Source of the DNA: Candidatus Obscuribacterales bacterium
GTDB taxonomy: Bacteria; Cyanobacteriota; Vampirovibrionia; Obscuribacterales; Obscuribacteraceae
Direction: 5' to 3'
Length of the DNA stretch: 64,000 nucleotides
Assembly (NCBI GenBank): GCA_965228855.1
Contig: CBDDIJ010000002.1
Location: forward strand, 832,001 to 896,000
The position numbers and the translations under genes are program-made. A model generated the notes under the pieces. It ran no database searches, was not told the DNA's origin, and worked only from the letters and a program-made list of their open reading frames with translations. Position 1 is the first letter of the stretch. Each line of letters starts with the position of its first letter. This document shows positions 23,990 through 57,790 of the stretch, piece after piece.

Positions 23990-25123
23990 ATGCTCAAATT
24001 TACCGTGGCAAACTATCCTGAGTTACTCGGGTACACGAAAGTTTGTCAGGTGTCTGATGAGGACATCTGGCAGCACCTCGTGTCACCGATGACGAAGGGG
24101 CTTTTGGGAGGCATCGTCGAGATTCGACCTCCTCGAGTGATTGAGTCGCTCGAAGGTCTTTTCCCTGGCGACCACGCTGCCAACCTCAACGACCACCGCA
24201 TGTTCGGTGGGCAGCGAGGTTTCGTGCGTTTTCCCTATGTGACCAACTTCTGCAAAACCGAGAATGGTGCGTTCATCGTCAAGCGAGATGGCGTCAAGTT
24301 CGAGGTGTTCTGCTGGTTTGGTGACGTTGAGAAAGGCAAGGGCGAGATGATTCTCAAAGCGGGTCTTCGCGACCGTCGCTTTGACGGCACTGTGCGTGCC
24401 AATGATTCAGCTCTGCTCGATTATCCTTACGACGACCCGATTCTGCACCGTCCGCTCAGTCCGGACTTCAGCTCTCTCGAGTTGTCGATTTACGCTTTCC
24501 TGCCCGGCTCTCGCATCACGGACGTGATCAGCGATGCCGAGTACGAGCGCTTCGTGACGCAGCCCTACACCTTCTGCAACAAGCCCGAGGAATTCATCAA
24601 GTTCTTCAATATGGCTTGGGCGTCGAAGCGTGCTCCTGGTCAGCAGGCTGCTCCGATTCCGGACGTCGCTCCCTTCGTCCTGCGCGGTTTCCAGCGAATC
24701 GCTGAGGACCTGGGCTACGACTTCCTGGAGATGGCTCCGAGCCACTATCACGTTGCTCGCTGGGGACTCGGCGGAGACTACCTCTTCCGCGACCCGGTTC
24801 AGGAGGCTACGTTCAATGCGTTCAGCGAGGGACTGGAGCGCATTCGCGCATCCGGTATGCCGCTGACTCGCTCGCAGCAGTCGTGGGTCTGCGTTGTTCA
24901 GAGCTTGCAGCCGTCCAGCCGTATACCGGTTGCGCTGCGGCTCTCCGGTCCCCAGTGGCCGCAGGACAACATCGGACCCAAGGTGCTCTGGCTCTATAAG
25001 CCGCTATCCGAGCGCGCGAAGGGTTTCAAGCCCGCGCCGCTCCACGTGGCCGAGCCTGCTGTTTCTGTCGCTGGAGGTAGCTCGTCTGCCTCCGGTTTCG
25101 CTGTTGTTGCTCCCAAAGAGTGA
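23990..25123 (+). CDS. hypothetical protein, paralogue 1 of tandem pair
   Basis: 377 aa; shares NDHR, RFPY, LRDRRFDGT, PGSRI, PGQ, APSHYHVA.W, WPQDNIGP with the next gene. Confidence 0.88.
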   Translation: MLKFTVANYPELLGYTKVCQVSDEDIWQHLVSPMTKGLLGGIVEIRPPRVIESLEGLFPGDHAANLNDHRMFGGQRGFVRFPYVTNFCKTENGAFIVKRDGVKFEVFCWFGDVEKGKGEMILKAGLRDRRFDGTVRANDSALLDYPYDDPILHRPLSPDFSSLELSIYAFLPGSRITDVISDAEYERFVTQPYTFCNKPEEFIKFFNMAWASKRAPGQQAAPIPDVAPFVLRGFQRIAEDLGYDFLEMAPSHYHVARWGLGGDYLFRDPVQEATFNAFSEGLERIRASGMPLTRSQQSWVCVVQSLQPSSRIPVALRLSGPQWPQDNIGPKVLWLYKPLSERAKGFKPAPLHVAEPAVSVAGGSSSASGFAVVAPKE

Positions 25124-25241: not shown

Positions 25242-26336
25242 ATGGCTAACCACAAATTCTCTAGCCCGAACATCACTGAAATGCTCGGGGTTACTCCTAT
25301 TGCTCTTGTCACGGACGAAGAAATCTGGACGCGGTTGGTCACGCCCCAGGTCAAAGCTTTGCTCGGTGACATTGTTTCCAGCAAGGTTGAACTCCGTGAA
25401 ACCGTCGATGGAACCTTCAATGGCGATGAAGTGACCAACTTCAACGACCACCGTCTCTACGGCGGCAAGGAGGGTTTCAAGTACATTCGTTTCCCCTACA
25501 TCCACTCGCACTACAAGACCACTTACGGCTCGCTCGTCATCAAGCGCGACGGCGCGAAGTTCAAGGTCCTCGGATACGTCGGCAATGTCGAGAAGGGTCC
25601 GTTCGACCTGATCTTCAAGGTCGCTCTGCGTGACCGCCGCTTCGACGGAACGGCTCGCGCCAACGACTGCTCGCTGGTGGACTTCATCGGTTACGAAGAT
25701 CCCACGCTCAACCACACCCTGCAGATTGCGGGGCTGGTCGAGAACGCGACAGCAGTCGAGCTGTCCACCTACGGCTTCATGCCCGGCAGTCGCATTGTCG
25801 ACGCCACTGGTGACGAGCAGCTCGATGAGTTTGTTCGCAATCCGTACCTGTTCGTCGGCAAGCCGAAAACCTGGCTGCGCCTGTTCAAGAAGGCGTGGAA
25901 GTCGAAGCGTTCGCCCGGTCAGAACGGCAACCCCGTTCCGGACATCGCTCGCCTGGTGCCCAACATCGTCGAAGCCATGGCTTTCGAGCGTGGTTACGAC
26001 TACATGGAAAACGCACCCAGCCACTATCATGTGGCTAAGTGGGCGGAGAGCTGCAAGTACTGGTATTCCGACCCGGAACAGGCTGCAGCCCTCAAGGCTC
26101 TGGGTGCCGGTATTGCAAGCGTCAAGGCAGCCGGCGAGACGTTGACTCGTCCGCAAGAGTCCTGGCTTGTCGCGATGCAGAGCCTGCCGAAGGAATTCAT
26201 TCCCGAGAAGTTTTACTTCGGCGGCGCCAAGTGGCCTCAGGACAACATCGGTCCCGAGAACCTCTGGATGTACAAGCCTTTGTCCGACCGCGCCAAAGCA
26301 TCAGCAGCTGCTGTTGCCGCGGCGAGTTCGAAATAG
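25242..26336 (+). CDS. hypothetical protein, paralogue 2 of tandem pair
   Basis: 364 aa; GGGAG RBS; same motifs as 23990-25123. Confidence 0.88.
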   Translation: MANHKFSSPNITEMLGVTPIALVTDEEIWTRLVTPQVKALLGDIVSSKVELRETVDGTFNGDEVTNFNDHRLYGGKEGFKYIRFPYIHSHYKTTYGSLVIKRDGAKFKVLGYVGNVEKGPFDLIFKVALRDRRFDGTARANDCSLVDFIGYEDPTLNHTLQIAGLVENATAVELSTYGFMPGSRIVDATGDEQLDEFVRNPYLFVGKPKTWLRLFKKAWKSKRSPGQNGNPVPDIARLVPNIVEAMAFERGYDYMENAPSHYHVAKWAESCKYWYSDPEQAAALKALGAGIASVKAAGETLTRPQESWLVAMQSLPKEFIPEKFYFGGAKWPQDNIGPENLWMYKPLSDRAKASAAAVAAASSK

Positions 26337-26344
26337 CGTTTCGT

Positions 26345-26392
26345 GGCGGCGGATTTTCAGGCTCACCCCTGAACTTCCGCCGCCCTTTTTTT
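26345..26392 (+). terminator. intrinsic terminator
   Basis: GGCGGCGGA...TCCGCCGCC followed by T7. Confidence 0.85.
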
Positions 26393-26399
26393 CGATCCA

Positions 26400-26556
26400 C
26401 TACTATATGCCGGCGTTGAACATTGTTGGAGGCGGTGTCTCGAAAGGCATGCTGTTACTGCGTCATGCCGATGCGGGTGAGACAGGCGGCAGATTTGCAG
26501 TGTCTTTTGGCAACGAGAGAGCGACGGATTTCGCGAATTCCGTCATAGTGGCGTAG
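26400..26556. repeat. left part of a CTACTATA/palindrome element interrupted by IS110
   Basis: CTACTATATG at 26400; palindrome 26507-26556 cut after ...GGCGTAG; continues as ACAAA at 27813. Confidence 0.9.
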
Positions 26557-26569
26557 ATAGTGTGTTAGG

Positions 26570-26575
26570 TGTCAA
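26570..26575 (-). promoter_or_regulatory. -35 box of the IS circle-junction promoter
   Basis: TTGACA overlapping the transposase stop; 17 bp from TACGTT (27808-27803) once the ends join through the CT core. Confidence 0.8.
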
Positions 26576-27534
26576 GCCAGAGTGCTGTTAAACCTGGAAT
26601 CGAATGGTTGTTTCGAGCGATATACAGCGACCATCATACGGAGAAGTTTGCGTGAGGCGGCACAAACAATTACTTTTCTGTTTTTTCCCTTTGCTGCCAG
26701 TCGTTTAGCGAATTCAGCCACTGGCGGATTAAACCGAGTGGCGGTAAGGGCGGCCATGTACAACATGCTGCGGATCACTGGATTTCCCATCTTCGAAATT
26801 CTGGAACGTCCTCGGACTGAAGAACCGGACTCACGGATCATGGGATTCAGACCACAGAATGCTTCGATCTGGCGCAAGCTCGTAAACGAGTCCATCATCG
26901 ACAGTTCTGAGAGAAACGTGAATGCTGTTCTCCAGCCGACGCCCTTAATCGTCTGGAGTAATTTAGCGTTGCTTTTCAAAGCAGGATTCTCGGAGACCAG
27001 CGTCTTCGCCAGCTTTTCCAGTGTTTGAATTTCGTTGGTAATGAACTTCAACATACGCATCTGAGAGTCTAAAGCGCGCTGGTCCAGGCGTCCCGATTTC
27101 ATTCGATTTGTGACTTGGGTTTTGGTTTTCTTTAGCGCAGCGAGCTCTCTACAAATGTCTCTCAGGGAGCGAATGTCAGGATCCATCGGAGACCAAGGAA
27201 GGGGCTCCATTTTAAAACAAAAGTCGGCGATGATTTCCGCATCGATTGCGTCGGTTTTTGAACGTCTAAATTGGCTCTTGCCGAAGGCGTGTATCAGCGC
27301 TGGATTTACCACGCTGACTCGATAGCCAAGTTTGTGTAGAAACTCCGCAAGGGGCTCCCAGAGCTTCCCCGTAGCTTCCATGCAAAAGTGAACATCCTTA
27401 CCGGATGCTTGAATCCATTTGACTATTCTCTTGAACCCAGCTGGGTTATTGCTGACGTGCAGCTTCGAATTCTTCCTGTCCTGGCGATGGCAGTCTAACG
27501 TCTCCTTCGATACGTCGATTCCAACAAAGATCAT
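26572..27534 (-). CDS. IS110 DEDD recombinase/transposase
   Basis: GIDVSK, CMEATG, KTDAIDA (DEDD) and GLNPMIRESGSSVRGRSRISKMGN (catalytic Ser loop); AGGAG RBS. Confidence 0.97.
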   Translation of the reverse strand: MIFVGIDVSKETLDCHRQDRKNSKLHVSNNPAGFKRIVKWIQASGKDVHFCMEATGKLWEPLAEFLHKLGYRVSVVNPALIHAFGKSQFRRSKTDAIDAEIIADFCFKMEPLPWSPMDPDIRSLRDICRELAALKKTKTQVTNRMKSGRLDQRALDSQMRMLKFITNEIQTLEKLAKTLVSENPALKSNAKLLQTIKGVGWRTAFTFLSELSMMDSFTSLRQIEAFCGLNPMIRESGSSVRGRSRISKMGNPVIRSMLYMAALTATRFNPPVAEFAKRLAAKGKNRKVIVCAASRKLLRMMVAVYRSKQPFDSRFNSTLA

Positions 27535-27577
27535 TGCTCCTACCTCCTGTTGCTGGTTCGCTTGGACGCGGATAGAA

Positions 27578-27796
27578 TCTTGTCAGGGCGAGCCTTGTTT
27601 ACACGTGCTAAATCGGTCAGGATTTGCTGTAGATAGTGTTCAGCCTTAGAGGACAAGACAGGAGCGGAAGTCCGAAATCTACGCCTCTGACTTTCTAGCC
27701 GGAGACAAAATACTGGTTTCTTCCGCTCCTCTATCCTCGCGTCCTCGGATAGCCTTGCCGACTGCACGCTCCTGGTCAACAGCAACGTACCAGTCA
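27578..27796 (-). ncRNA. IS110 bridge RNA (ends approximate)
   Basis: 5' hairpin 27731-27752; target loop closed by 11-bp stem 27660-27670/27720-27730 with guides ATTTTGTCT and GGCGTAGA; donor loop closed by TCTTGTC/GACAAGA with guides ACACTATCT and ACAAG. Confidence 0.9.
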
Positions 27797-27802
27797 ACAT
27801 CT

Positions 27803-27808
27803 AACGTA
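27803..27808 (-). promoter_or_regulatory. -10 box of the IS circle-junction promoter
   Basis: TACGTT two bases inside the left end. Confidence 0.7.
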
Positions 27809-27812
27809 CAAG

Positions 27813-27900
27813 ACAAATATGAGGACCGTTTCGCGGTCGAAGTGCAAATCCCCGAGCCATGTGGCTTTGGGCATCTCGAAGGTGTGGAGTTTTATAGTAG
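27813..27900. repeat. right part of the interrupted CTACTATA/palindrome element
   Basis: Begins ACAAA and ends TATAGTAG at 27900; reconstituted length 245 bp, matching other copies. Confidence 0.88.
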
Positions 27901-27936
27901 GATTGGCCGGCAGGTTCAAAATCCCGGGACTGCCGC

Positions 27937-28746
27937 TTACTTCGCTGATTCGGCGACTTCTTTGTCGGAACCTTGACCGCCCGAATTAGTTCCACCCTCA
28001 GCGGCGGCATAGCGCACTACAATCATGGTGACGTTGTCCGGGGCGCCGCCATCGAGTGTTGCCTTGAGAAGCTTTTCGCAGGCGTCCTTTGGTGTTTCAC
28101 AGGTGGCTACGATTTCGCCGATGTTTTCGTCCAGAACAACTGTGGATAGACCGTCACTCGACAGAATGAGCCAATCTCCGGGCTTCATCTCTGCTGGAGT
28201 TCTATCAATCTCGACTTTAGCTTTGTGACCGACGCATCGAGTGAGATAGTGGCGGAACGGGCTGTTGCGAAGCTGTTCTTCGCTCATTCGTCCTTGCAAC
28301 ACCATCTCCATGACCACCGAATGATCCTGAGTAAGCACGACGGTTTTGCCCTCGCGAATCAGGTAAGCACGCGAGTCTCCGACGTGCGCGATTTGCAGAC
28401 TTCCATCGGGACAATGGATTGCCGCGACAATTGTTGTACCCATGTCCTTCACTGCAGGGTCGGCTGCTGCTGCATCAAACACATCCTGGTTGGCGTTCGA
28501 AACCGCCTCCACGAGCCATGCTTGAATGGTATTGGCGTCGACCGAATTCGGTTGACGCTCGTTCCATAACTTTTCAACTGCGAGAATCGCAAGCTTGCTG
28601 GCTTTACTTCCGCCTTTCATGCCGCCCATCCCGTCAGCGACTACGAGGAGTCGATTGTCGGAACTCACAAACATATTGTCCTGATTTTCGGTTCTCTTGA
28701 TTCCAGGATCAGTGACGGAGGCAACCTGCCACGAAACTTTAGTCAT
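27937..28746 (-). CDS. PP2C-family Ser/Thr phosphatase (Stp1/PrpC-like)
   Basis: RTENQD, VADGMGG, MGTT, AHVGDSRAY, TQDHS, SSDGL, GGAPDNVT. Confidence 0.96.
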   Translation of the reverse strand: MTKVSWQVASVTDPGIKRTENQDNMFVSSDNRLLVVADGMGGMKGGSKASKLAILAVEKLWNERQPNSVDANTIQAWLVEAVSNANQDVFDAAAADPAVKDMGTTIVAAIHCPDGSLQIAHVGDSRAYLIREGKTVVLTQDHSVVMEMVLQGRMSEEQLRNSPFRHYLTRCVGHKAKVEIDRTPAEMKPGDWLILSSDGLSTVVLDENIGEIVATCETPKDACEKLLKATLDGGAPDNVTMIVVRYAAAEGGTNSGGQGSDKEVAESAK

Positions 28747-29104: not shown

Positions 29105-30358
29105 ATGAATAAAACCTACTTGGCCCTTGGAGCTGTTGCAGTCATCATTGCAGCAGTCGTTGGGCTGACCACGTTTTGGTCGCCTCGTCCCGAGCCCGTG
29201 AGGGTGCCTTCTTATCTTGAGAAGGCCTCTGGCGAGACGATTCTTCCACCAGCCAGTCGTGAGGAGATTCAGCGTCGCGTGCAGTTTGCGCCCGACGGTT
29301 TCACTCGAGAGCGGCTTGTTGTCTTCTTCACCAACGGCGACGTCGGCGTGACTGTGTTCAATCCCGACCGCAGCGCCATTGTGTTCCGCTTCTATCCGCC
29401 GGGTGATGGATTCGACTGGAAAGCGTCTGCGTTTTCCGAGAAGGGCATGAAAAGCCGAGTCGAACGCGCTGCCGATGGAAAAACAATCATGGCGGAACGG
29501 CACTGGTACGAGGACGGAACGCTGAAGCGCCTCGGGCAGCGGCTTCCCGCCGGTGGCTATCAGGTTACCGCTTTCTTCGGCGACGGCGTCACCATGTCGG
29601 AGAGCACCTTGTTCTCCAACACCGGCGTGCTCGAAATCCAGTCGATGTACTACCAGACCGGAATCCTCAAAAGCGTTCTGAAAAGCAAGTACAACGGCTT
29701 GTACAAGGACTGGGTCAGTTATTTCCCCGACGGCAAGAAATCTGCTTTCCACATCGTCGAGGGTAACACCGAGCGTGGTGAGTTCTATTACGATGACGGT
29801 GTGACGGTTCGCATCAAGTTCATGAAAGAGCTCATCTCGCGAAACTTCATGGGCGTTTCGGTGGTGACGGCGGTGTACAACAACGCCGATGGAACGCTCA
29901 ATCACACGCGCGTGTGGGATACGAACAGCATGAAGGTCAGCTATCCCGCGGTAAACGGGAAGCCGGCGTTCACGCAGATCTGGAGATACGTCGACGCGAA
30001 GAAGGCGCAAAACCGTCTCGCTATCGATAACTTTCAGCTCCAGTCGGTAAGCGTTGCCAGGCTTGACGGTATCGACAATGTCGATATTTCGCTGGGCAAA
30101 GATCAGATTCCGGTCGAGATTCGTTTCGTTCGCAAGAACGACAAGGGCGTCGAGGAGCGCATCACGCGCAAGCTTCGAGCCGACGGTACTGTCGAATCCG
30201 AATCTGTGGCCAGCTACTCCGGCGGACGCGTCGAGCGCAAATTCACTGGTGAAGAGGGCGGGCGTGTAATCATTCCTGTCGACTTCTTCGCCGCGGGCTC
30301 GTATGAGGCACCACCTTCGGTGCCATCCGAATTCTCGTATTACCCGGGTGGTTACTGA
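29105..30358 (+). CDS. membrane-anchored protein with YwqK/MORN-like beta repeats
   Basis: N-terminal TM helix; repeated W/Y/F-x-x-DG-T/K units (WYEDGTLK, YFPDGKK, YYDDGVT, YNNADGTL). Confidence 0.75.
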   Translation: MNKTYLALGAVAVIIAAVVGLTTFWSPRPEPVRVPSYLEKASGETILPPASREEIQRRVQFAPDGFTRERLVVFFTNGDVGVTVFNPDRSAIVFRFYPPGDGFDWKASAFSEKGMKSRVERAADGKTIMAERHWYEDGTLKRLGQRLPAGGYQVTAFFGDGVTMSESTLFSNTGVLEIQSMYYQTGILKSVLKSKYNGLYKDWVSYFPDGKKSAFHIVEGNTERGEFYYDDGVTVRIKFMKELISRNFMGVSVVTAVYNNADGTLNHTRVWDTNSMKVSYPAVNGKPAFTQIWRYVDAKKAQNRLAIDNFQLQSVSVARLDGIDNVDISLGKDQIPVEIRFVRKNDKGVEERITRKLRADGTVESESVASYSGGRVERKFTGEEGGRVIIPVDFFAAGSYEAPPSVPSEFSYYPGGY

Positions 30359-57044: not shown

Positions 57045-57087
57045 GAAGCTGGCTGCTCACCCCGCGTGACAGCCAGCTTCTTTTCTT
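57045..57087 (+). terminator. intrinsic terminator
   Basis: GAAGCTGGCTG...CAGCCAGCTTC followed by TTTTCTT. Confidence 0.85.
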
Positions 57088-57640
57088 GATTTTGACTACT
57101 ATATGCGGGCGTATCCGCTGAAAACTGCGGGCATTGTGCAGGCGGGGTATTGGGGTCTTGGGGTCAGTTCAGTGTGCCTCAAATTTAGCTCGTTGGCGGC
57201 GCTTGATTTTGACTACTATATGCGGACGTATCCGCTAAAACCTGCGAGCATTGTGCAGGCGGGGCATTGGGGTCTTTGTATCAATTCAGTGTGCCTCAAA
57301 TTTAGCTCGTTGGCGGCGTGGTGTAGACGGAATTTCGAAATTCCGGCGCTCTGTGATAGACAAAGCCACTTTTCTTGGGGGTGCCAATTCGGACGAAAGT
57401 CTCTAAAGGTCCGCCTCGTACTGCTCTCGCGTTTTGACTGAGCACGTCGGCATATAGTAGTAGTTTTGGCGGCGTGGCGTAGACGGATTTTCGAAATTCC
57501 GGCGCTCTGTGATAGACAAGGACACTCTTTTCGAGGGCTCTAATTCGGGCGAAAGTCTAGAAAGCTCCGTCTCGTCGTGCTCTCGCGTTTTGATTGAGCA
57601 CGTCGGCATATAGTAGGAAGGAGGCGTCGGCATATAGTAG
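57085..57640. repeat. expanded CTACTATA/palindrome locus: core copy 57213-57460 with duplicated left arm, duplicated palindrome+right arm and extra terminus
   Basis: 117-bp direct repeat (57085/57202), 156-bp direct repeat (57310/57466), CGTCGGCATATAGTAG ending at 57460, 57616 and 57640. Confidence 0.92.
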
Positions 57641-57790
57641 GAAGTTTGGGGCGGGGGGAATTTCCCCATTGTGGGCGCAATATCCGAAGAATATAGTGGG
57701 GACACCGCTGAGATGCCGCTGAATTCGCTGCAGCATCTGGAAACCAAATCTCCACTTACCTAGCGTAATCGCAAGTTTCTTTTAACCACT

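Follow-up and report, generated by a model that had tools for sequence, protein, structure and literature searches.

The region between positions 26400 and 27900 of the window (the whole 64,000-nucleotide stretch of genome G000 analyzed here) raises the question of whether an IS110 element guided by its own bridge RNA has inserted into a dispersed repeat of its host, as an initial annotation of the sequence proposed, and what directs it there. The element, here called A, is very probably an intact, recently mobile bridge-recombinase element of the IS621 type; RNA expression, circle formation and catalysis would follow by analogy with IS621. It is an ordinary further member of that family, real and well supported: a well-bounded IS621 orthologue (about 40% identity) from a little-sampled phylum, added to a family that genome-editing work has already exploited. 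It gains its value from the set that it forms with a sister element, B, and other relatives, while the remaining novelty is carried by a clade with mixed cores and by a phased, origin-proximal host repeat.

Boundaries, copies and empty sites

Element A occupies 26557-27812 on the minus strand (1,256 bp, with the CT core counted once). The initial annotation had it inserted in one copy of the repeat; the genome contains three copies of 1,256 bp, 100% identical to one another, in three copies of the repeat. The flanks of the other genomic copies, which had been suggested as a check, show identical ends in all three. TTTGT stands ahead of the left core and ACG behind the right core of every copy, and CT is present at both junctions (3/3). 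In the sister species genome, G007, all three orthologous places are uninterrupted, and the ends of A are placed at 26557 and 27812 because of these uninterrupted sites. Excision of 26557-27812, with one core copy included, joins ...GGCGTAG to ACAAA and leaves 245 bp between 26400 and 27900; G007 carries exactly this uninterrupted form of the window site. The minus-strand target (TATTTGT-CT-ACGCC) and donor (ACACTAT-CT-TGTAC) first proposed for A are both correct. The left non-coding end measures 278 bp and the right end 15 bp, and the two have no inverted-repeat relation.

Neither G007 nor any other genome searched yielded A, and a nucleotide search of plasmids gave no match. No RNA run was listed as containing this DNA. 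Four sequencing runs, of which X1 and X3 may come from the source sample, contained neither a joint of A's two ends nor a sequence skipping A. These runs do not bear on the existence of a circle: three are contig sets, in which rare forms are dropped, X6 was represented in 3 of 30 bins, and 0 reads could be placed from the run of raw reads. At the window site, A is flanked by two genes that converge on it (25242-26336 and 28746-27937). Just left of A, 23990-25123 and 25242-26336 are tandem paralogous ORFs of 377 and 364 amino acids, without a Pfam match. An ORF of 417 amino acids at 29105-30358, also without a Pfam match, has a hydrophobic segment at its N-terminus and repeats of short beta-like motifs.

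Recombinase, predicted bridge RNA and circle junction

The recombinase gene (26572-27534, minus strand) encodes 320 amino acids and matches the Pfam domains PF01548 (E 3e-28) and PF02371 (E 7e-24). Its best PDB matches are IS621 (8wt6, E 7e-63) and ISCro4 (9t56, E 2e-59), and it is 40.6% identical to annotated IS621 transposases. The DEDD residues D7, E53, D95 and D98 and the catalytic serine S236 align with D11, E60, D102, D105 and S241 of IS621. Pfam domains, PDB matches and motif alignment all place the protein in the IS110 group (IS621 type). With an open frame, all catalytic residues, a predicted bridge RNA in the left end and a CT core, A looks like the intact RNA-guided recombinase orthologue that it was first taken to be.

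The left non-coding end (27535-27812, minus strand) holds the right donor, a -10 box, the predicted bridge RNA and the ribosome-binding site. It folds more stably than any of 200 shuffles (z-score -3.78), and its scaffold is kept in relatives; Rfam gave no match up to E 1 over 26300-28000. All features of this RNA are on the minus strand. A 5' stem-loop is predicted at 27760-27795. The target-binding loop (27661-27729) contains the left target guide (27711-27703), the right target guide (27685-27679) and an AU handshake guide (27678-27677); its basal stem carries compensatory changes in an alignment of 10 sequences, and double changes occur in 11 of the 39 pairs that RNAalifold predicts for the target-loop stems. 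The donor-binding loop (27578-27658, ends approximate) contains the left donor guide (27639-27631), which matches the donor at 9/9, the right donor guide (27602-27594), of which seven bases pair with the donor and two, both A, are bulged, and a GC handshake guide (27593-27592). This loop was not recovered by RNAalifold from the same 10 sequences; it appears only when the guides are held open (9 of 10 constrained folds), and opening the guides costs 14 kcal/mol in A against 4.5-12.3 kcal/mol in nine relatives.

The guide matches reported in the initial annotation were all found where it had located them (27711-27703, 7/9; 27685-27678, 8/8; 27639-27631, 9/9; ACAAG at 27598-27594, 5/5). In 20,000 mononucleotide shuffles covering the final 218 nt of A's left end, these single matches were reached in 11.9%, 0.43%, 0.08% and 26.8%, respectively, and all four jointly in none (0/20,000). 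Thus the set of matches is not due to chance, even though two of them are weak singly.

The right end (26557-26575, minus strand) holds a -35 box, TTGACA (26575-26570), which overlaps the stop codon, and the left donor ACACTAT (26563-26557). At the opposite end (27803-27812, minus strand) the CT core (27812-27811) is followed by the right donor TGTAC (27810-27806) and the -10-like TACGTT (27808-27803). Across the predicted circle junction, TTGAC(A/G/T), a 17-bp spacer and TA(C/T)G(T/C)T recur in all 14 copies that have both ends. This geometry suggests a sigma-70-like promoter that in A would form, and presumably be active, only in the circle. The -10 box of A agrees with the consensus at 3 of 6 positions, where the threshold of the consensus scan is 4, and the scan called no promoter in the linear locus.

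We propose the following mechanism, which takes from the sequence A's boundaries, empty sites, identical copies, guide matches, covariation and promoter geometry, and from analogy its expression, circle and catalysis. A would leave as a circle, as IS621 does, whether by copy-out or by cut-out, a choice on which published work has not settled; in this circle the -35 of the right end and the -10 of the left end would be joined across the CT core at a spacing of 17 bp. The junction promoter would then drive a bridge RNA of roughly 230 nt from the left end. Its donor loop would pair with the circle junction and its target loop with TTTGT-CT-ACG in the outer arm of the palindrome, and a recombinase tetramer would exchange the top strands after CT. 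The handshake pairs may help this exchange: read by hand, they go from one Watson-Crick pair before it to three after it in both A and B.

Sister element B and other relatives

A second IS110 element in G000, B, is present in four copies (about 99% identical to one another; 52% identity to A), and it pairs with A as its sister in a protein tree of 12 rows (support 100/99). The B loci are C2:197-198 kb, C2:988-989 kb, C5:861-862 kb and C5:1461-1463 kb in G000 and C5:650-652 kb in G007 (L002, L027-L030). The RNA scaffold of B is 81% identical to that of A, the donor is the same and the donor loops are near-identical, while the target guides differ. All four B copies and the one in G007 use another site within the palindrome, which is on the opposite strand and some 11-13 bp away from the cut of A. 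A's guides match their own flanks at 7-8/9 (left) and 3-5/5 (right) and the B flanks at 2-5/9 and 0/5; B's guides, in turn, fit B's own flanks and match the A flanks at 2-3/9 (left) and 0/5 (right). A single-base drift in the left guide of B that tracks the flank in two copies (C2:198188 and G007) is suggestive. The B copy at G000:C5:862.2 kb (L063) has the left donor ACACTAC, altered at a handshake position, which would pair better with B's GU handshake guide.

In a nucleotide search, the scaffold was found in 12 of the 104 family genomes sampled from GTDB. We tabulated 17 element copies from 11 genomes, 14 of them with both ends, excluding fragmentary hits and L038 and L039, which are without the scaffold. 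A scan of genome contigs found two distant loci (37-40%) without the scaffold. Guides match their own flanks far better than permuted ones: across nine representative elements, 58 of 72 left-guide positions agree with the element's own left flank (permuted, 32.2; 0/100,000), and in the eight elements with a right end, right guides agree with their own right flank at 33 of 40 (permuted, 18.1; p = 0.0003), although these p-values are too strong because the relatives are kin and thus non-independent. When two near-redundant guides are removed, the counts are 44/56 (vs. 22.4) on the left and 31/35 (vs. 16.4) on the right. The fit is uneven: the left guide of G069 matches its own flank at only 5/9, and the right guide of G014 at 2/7 beyond the core. 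The donor loop shows one compensating donor/guide change (G106) and guide-only changes in G103 and G069. Together with A and B, these relatives make up a series in which the guides have been naturally reprogrammed while scaffold and donor stay the same; A and B themselves are a ready natural swap pair.

The host palindromic repeat

At the window site, A interrupts a 52-bp palindrome, of which the larger part (49 of the 52 bp), with the target core (26556-26555) and the right target, lies at 26508-26556, and the rest, with the left target (TATTTGT on the minus strand), at 27813-27819; the palindrome is intact in G007. Outer octamers stand on the plus strand to the left (CTACTATA, 26400-26408) and to the right (TATAGTAG, 27893-27900). 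An iterated profile recovered 222 palindromes in 164 clusters from G000 and none from the reversed genome. The unit is an imperfect inverted repeat of 52 bp with a 14-bp center; there are 116 strict matches with this center and none with a center of 13 or 15-17 bp. The distance from the palindrome end to the outward-facing TATAGTAG is mostly 77-81 or 87-93 bp, less often 67-69 or 101-104 bp, i.e., it varies in steps of about 11 bp.

Most palindromes (181/222, 82%) are in C2:0-1.2 Mb, at 151 per Mb compared to 5.8 elsewhere, and they cluster around dnaA (C2:793 kb) and the GC-skew switch. Outside ORFs are 198 of the 222, by a crude set of ORFs of 120 amino acids. The repeat occupies 33 of 78 convergent, 63 of 202 co-directional and 17 of 111 divergent gaps, the divergent gaps being depleted (p = 0.0002). 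It is therefore, as REP elements are, a multi-copy imperfect palindrome that is extragenic and scarce between divergent genes. The same pattern occurs in 3 of 61 relatives (G000, 116; G007, 80; G006, 2). It is also carried by 98 metagenome stretches, those listed coming from two assemblies, of which 96 align to G000 (median 92%); no IS110 pieces were found in them. Rfam and a literature search by lineage name gave no description of the repeat.

REP/BIME sequences and REPINs are intergenic imperfect palindromes with GTAG/CTAC that form tandem arrays, are rare between divergent genes and serve as IS110 targets, and the host repeat does likewise. Unlike REP/BIME and RAYT-associated REPINs, it is 52 bp long with fixed spacing, has an outward octamer at 11-bp steps and lies near the origin. 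No Y1/RAYT transposase (PF01797) was found in the three carriers, G000 (95% complete), G007 (91%) and G006 (92%), a difference from REP/RAYT systems for which we rejected RAYT as the source of the repeat; PF01797 is found in three of the eight genomes of the genus in which the repeat pattern was not seen. The repeat is lineage-restricted and behaves like REP/BIME, but differs in that no RAYT was found with it. The chances are about evenly balanced that it is a now-immobile REP-like element that acts as a phased protein-binding site on double-stranded DNA.

Two further accounts were set aside. Tandem growth of the repeat driven by IS110 insertion was rejected, as arrays show no enrichment of arms that match the guides (p = 0.13, 0.37). 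Readings of the octamer as a -10 box and of the palindrome as an attC or res site seem not to fit the spacing and the conserved intergenic positions. Several other features of the genome were observed. A tandem array of repeat units with spacings of 117 and 156 bp lies at 57085-57650 of the window. GC content is raised over G000:C2:1-1,200,000 (0.52-0.63 per 100 kb vs. about 0.50 elsewhere), with a peak in the first 100 kb. dnaA gave a single match (G000:C2:793.3-793.8 kb), within an open frame of 633 amino acids, which is long for DnaA. The 182-kb contig C4 has a GC content of 0.455 over its first 100 kb, rising to 0.644 in the remainder, and may be chimeric or foreign.

Target choice and alternative explanations

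All three A copies lie at one position of the 52-bp palindrome. Genome sites that match the 16-nt guide of A at 15/16 are in palindromes in four of four cases and those at ≥13/16 in 40 of 88, while palindromes make up 0.19% of the genome. The occupied sites match at only 12-13 positions and the four sites at 15/16 are unoccupied; with weaker sites occupied and better ones empty, pairing at the distal end of the guide may be of minor weight, or drift may have changed the guide. The initial annotation called this a new natural target, which applies to the left side only; the right guide and handshake equal those of an IS621 copy over 10 nt, and both elements cut inside CTAC. Its view of the repeat as a multi-copy target is supported, whereas the role of a safe harbor that it gave to the repeat is conjectural. 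The repeat offers many intergenic targets, and B, judging by guides and flanks, exploits another of the palindrome's positions by means of the same scaffold and a different set of guides.

Such a concentration in palindromes could mean that target choice needs the palindrome structure, or a host protein bound to it, in addition to guide pairing. A palindrome surrounds each of the seven insertions of A or B in G000, as it does B in G007, although only 92 of 419 genome sites for A and 45 of 394 for B, at ≥12/16, are in palindromes, and better-matching sites stand unoccupied; there is also a precedent in the target stem-loop described for ISPpu10 (10.64898/2026.03.19.712850). However, 45 of the 67 genome copies of the 10-mer common to the A sites are in palindromes, as are 15 of 15 copies of the B-site pattern, so that the preference can be accounted for by sequence, with no need for a structural gate. 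The bias would be strengthened by selection against insertions in genes, and some relatives with the shared scaffold sit in genomes where the repeat pattern was not found. We consider a structural requirement rather unlikely, and it would supplement RNA guidance, not replace it. It is improbable that A is complete in sequence but inactive, or is moved in trans by the recombinase of B. The common donor and near-identical donor loops would permit such mobilization, and the absence of A from G007 and the other genomes searched is in line with it; yet A has three 100% identical copies and an open 320-aa frame with all catalytic residues, and its sites, empty in the sister species, fit the guide of A and not that of B.

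A different account makes the 245-bp unit a still-moving MITE with terminal inverted repeats, on which the IS110 element merely rides. The initial annotation had described a 245-bp repeat element with both termini; this length is right for the window locus but does not extend to a family. Octamers face outward on both sides of 37 of the 222 palindromes, in copies of 216-268 bp, and on one side of 120, with 65 having neither; the same two-armed layout occurs at an orthologous place in G006. Both observations suit a MITE. The arms, on the other hand, are complementary over only 8-9 nt, and their interiors are as alike within a copy as between copies (16.9 vs. 16.9 of 52 nt). No target-site duplication rose above shuffles at the motif edge in 24 combinations of offset and length, a single excess (3-mers at offset 3, 5 vs. 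0.8) being taken as chance. All 35 mappable clusters are at the same place in G000 and G007 (8 of 43 were unmappable), without gain or loss, and 17 of the 35 differ in tandem copy number. The 22 repeated regions of ≥500 bp in G000 contain no multi-copy transposase other than the two IS110s, and the three carriers gave no Y1/RAYT match. A mobile MITE is accordingly improbable, and we retain an RNA-guided insertion of A into a REP-like repeat.

Comparison with known systems

A resembles IS621 (PMC11208160, PMC11208158) in its RuvC-like DEDD and serine domains, its long left end with a predicted 5' stem-loop, target loop and donor loop, its CT core, its predicted circle-junction promoter, a 9-nt right donor guide with two bulged bases and insertion inside CTAC of an extragenic palindrome. 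The handshake pattern of one pair to three is likewise given for IS621 (PMC13626964; PMC11208158). The donors of A and IS621 (10.64898/2026.08.31.748434) are identical at 12 of 14 positions, and the identity of right guide and handshake over 10 nt refers to the one IS621 copy compared. BLAST aligns the scaffold of A with that of IS621 only over words of 8-14 nt, and a sequence model gave no match between them. A's RNA, at about 230 nt against 177 nt, is also longer and includes an additional segment predicted to pair around both loops; its right end is only 15 bp; its left target is TTTTGT rather than TCAGGC; right-target pairing extends 5 nt beyond the core; and host phylum, repeat and, at 40.6% identity, protein differ. 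ISCro4/IS622 (10.1101/2025.05.14.653916; PDB 9t56) shares family and guide layout with A (E 2e-59), but is enterobacterial and 88% identical to IS621, and identical cores were chosen in that work, in contrast to the GT with CT of B.

Targeting of REP-like repeats by IS110 elements has long been described (PMC1525189). ISPpu9 and ISPpu10 of Pseudomonas putida (PMC1525189; 10.64898/2026.03.19.712850) are like A and B in that two distinct IS110s in one genome use one REP family only. As reported there, both enter the REP at one and the same position and duplicate 2 bp, whereas the insertion points of A and B, on opposite strands, are separated by about one helical turn, and only a T is duplicated by B. 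In ISEc21 and ISMch6 (PMC11187229), guide changes of related elements also track a changed target; three guide bases are altered in that case, whereas between A and B both guides are wholly replaced.

Mixed target and donor cores

The 14 two-ended copies differ in their cores. Four have CT at both junctions (the three A copies and G032), five have GT on the left and CT on the right (B), and five have AT on the left and CT on the right (G014, G103, G098, G106 and G069; L045, L048-L051); AT also stands at the left junction of three further copies that have only a left end. In all 17 copies the left target guide ends in the left-junction dinucleotide, i.e., it copies the target core, while the AG of the right target guide, which reads the CT of the donor, is invariant in the 10-row alignment. 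Empty sites show that the target core of B is GT at two of the five B sites. Mixed cores thus concern B and relatives, not A.

These combinations fit the IS621 structures, in which, as described, the top strands are cut behind the core and positions 6-9 form the heteroduplex (PMC11208158). The same report gives the first core base as less conserved, while cores are called invariant elsewhere (PMC13626964), and target/donor pairs with identical cores were chosen for ISCro4/IS622 (10.1101/2025.05.14.653916). In the literature, both cores were changed together, CT was prioritized or selected, or identity was required; the main texts searched held no account of unlike target and donor cores. We put forward, as a tentative reading that is possible rather than probable, that the clade around A naturally breaks the same-core rule and that the host repeat may be an undescribed, origin-proximal and helically phased protein-binding element, not a plain REP. 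GT and AT target cores joined to a CT donor make it directly testable whether the two cores must match. If a match of the first core base to the left guide suffices, whether or not the donor agrees, sites with unlike cores could be joined by bridge recombinases, which would widen the design rules, and mixed-core elements would be missed by pipelines that seek a repeated CT core. In one of the AT-core relatives (G098:C2:519.1-520.1 kb, L049), the recombinase is read in two frames and is apparently frameshifted, with RNA and ends intact.
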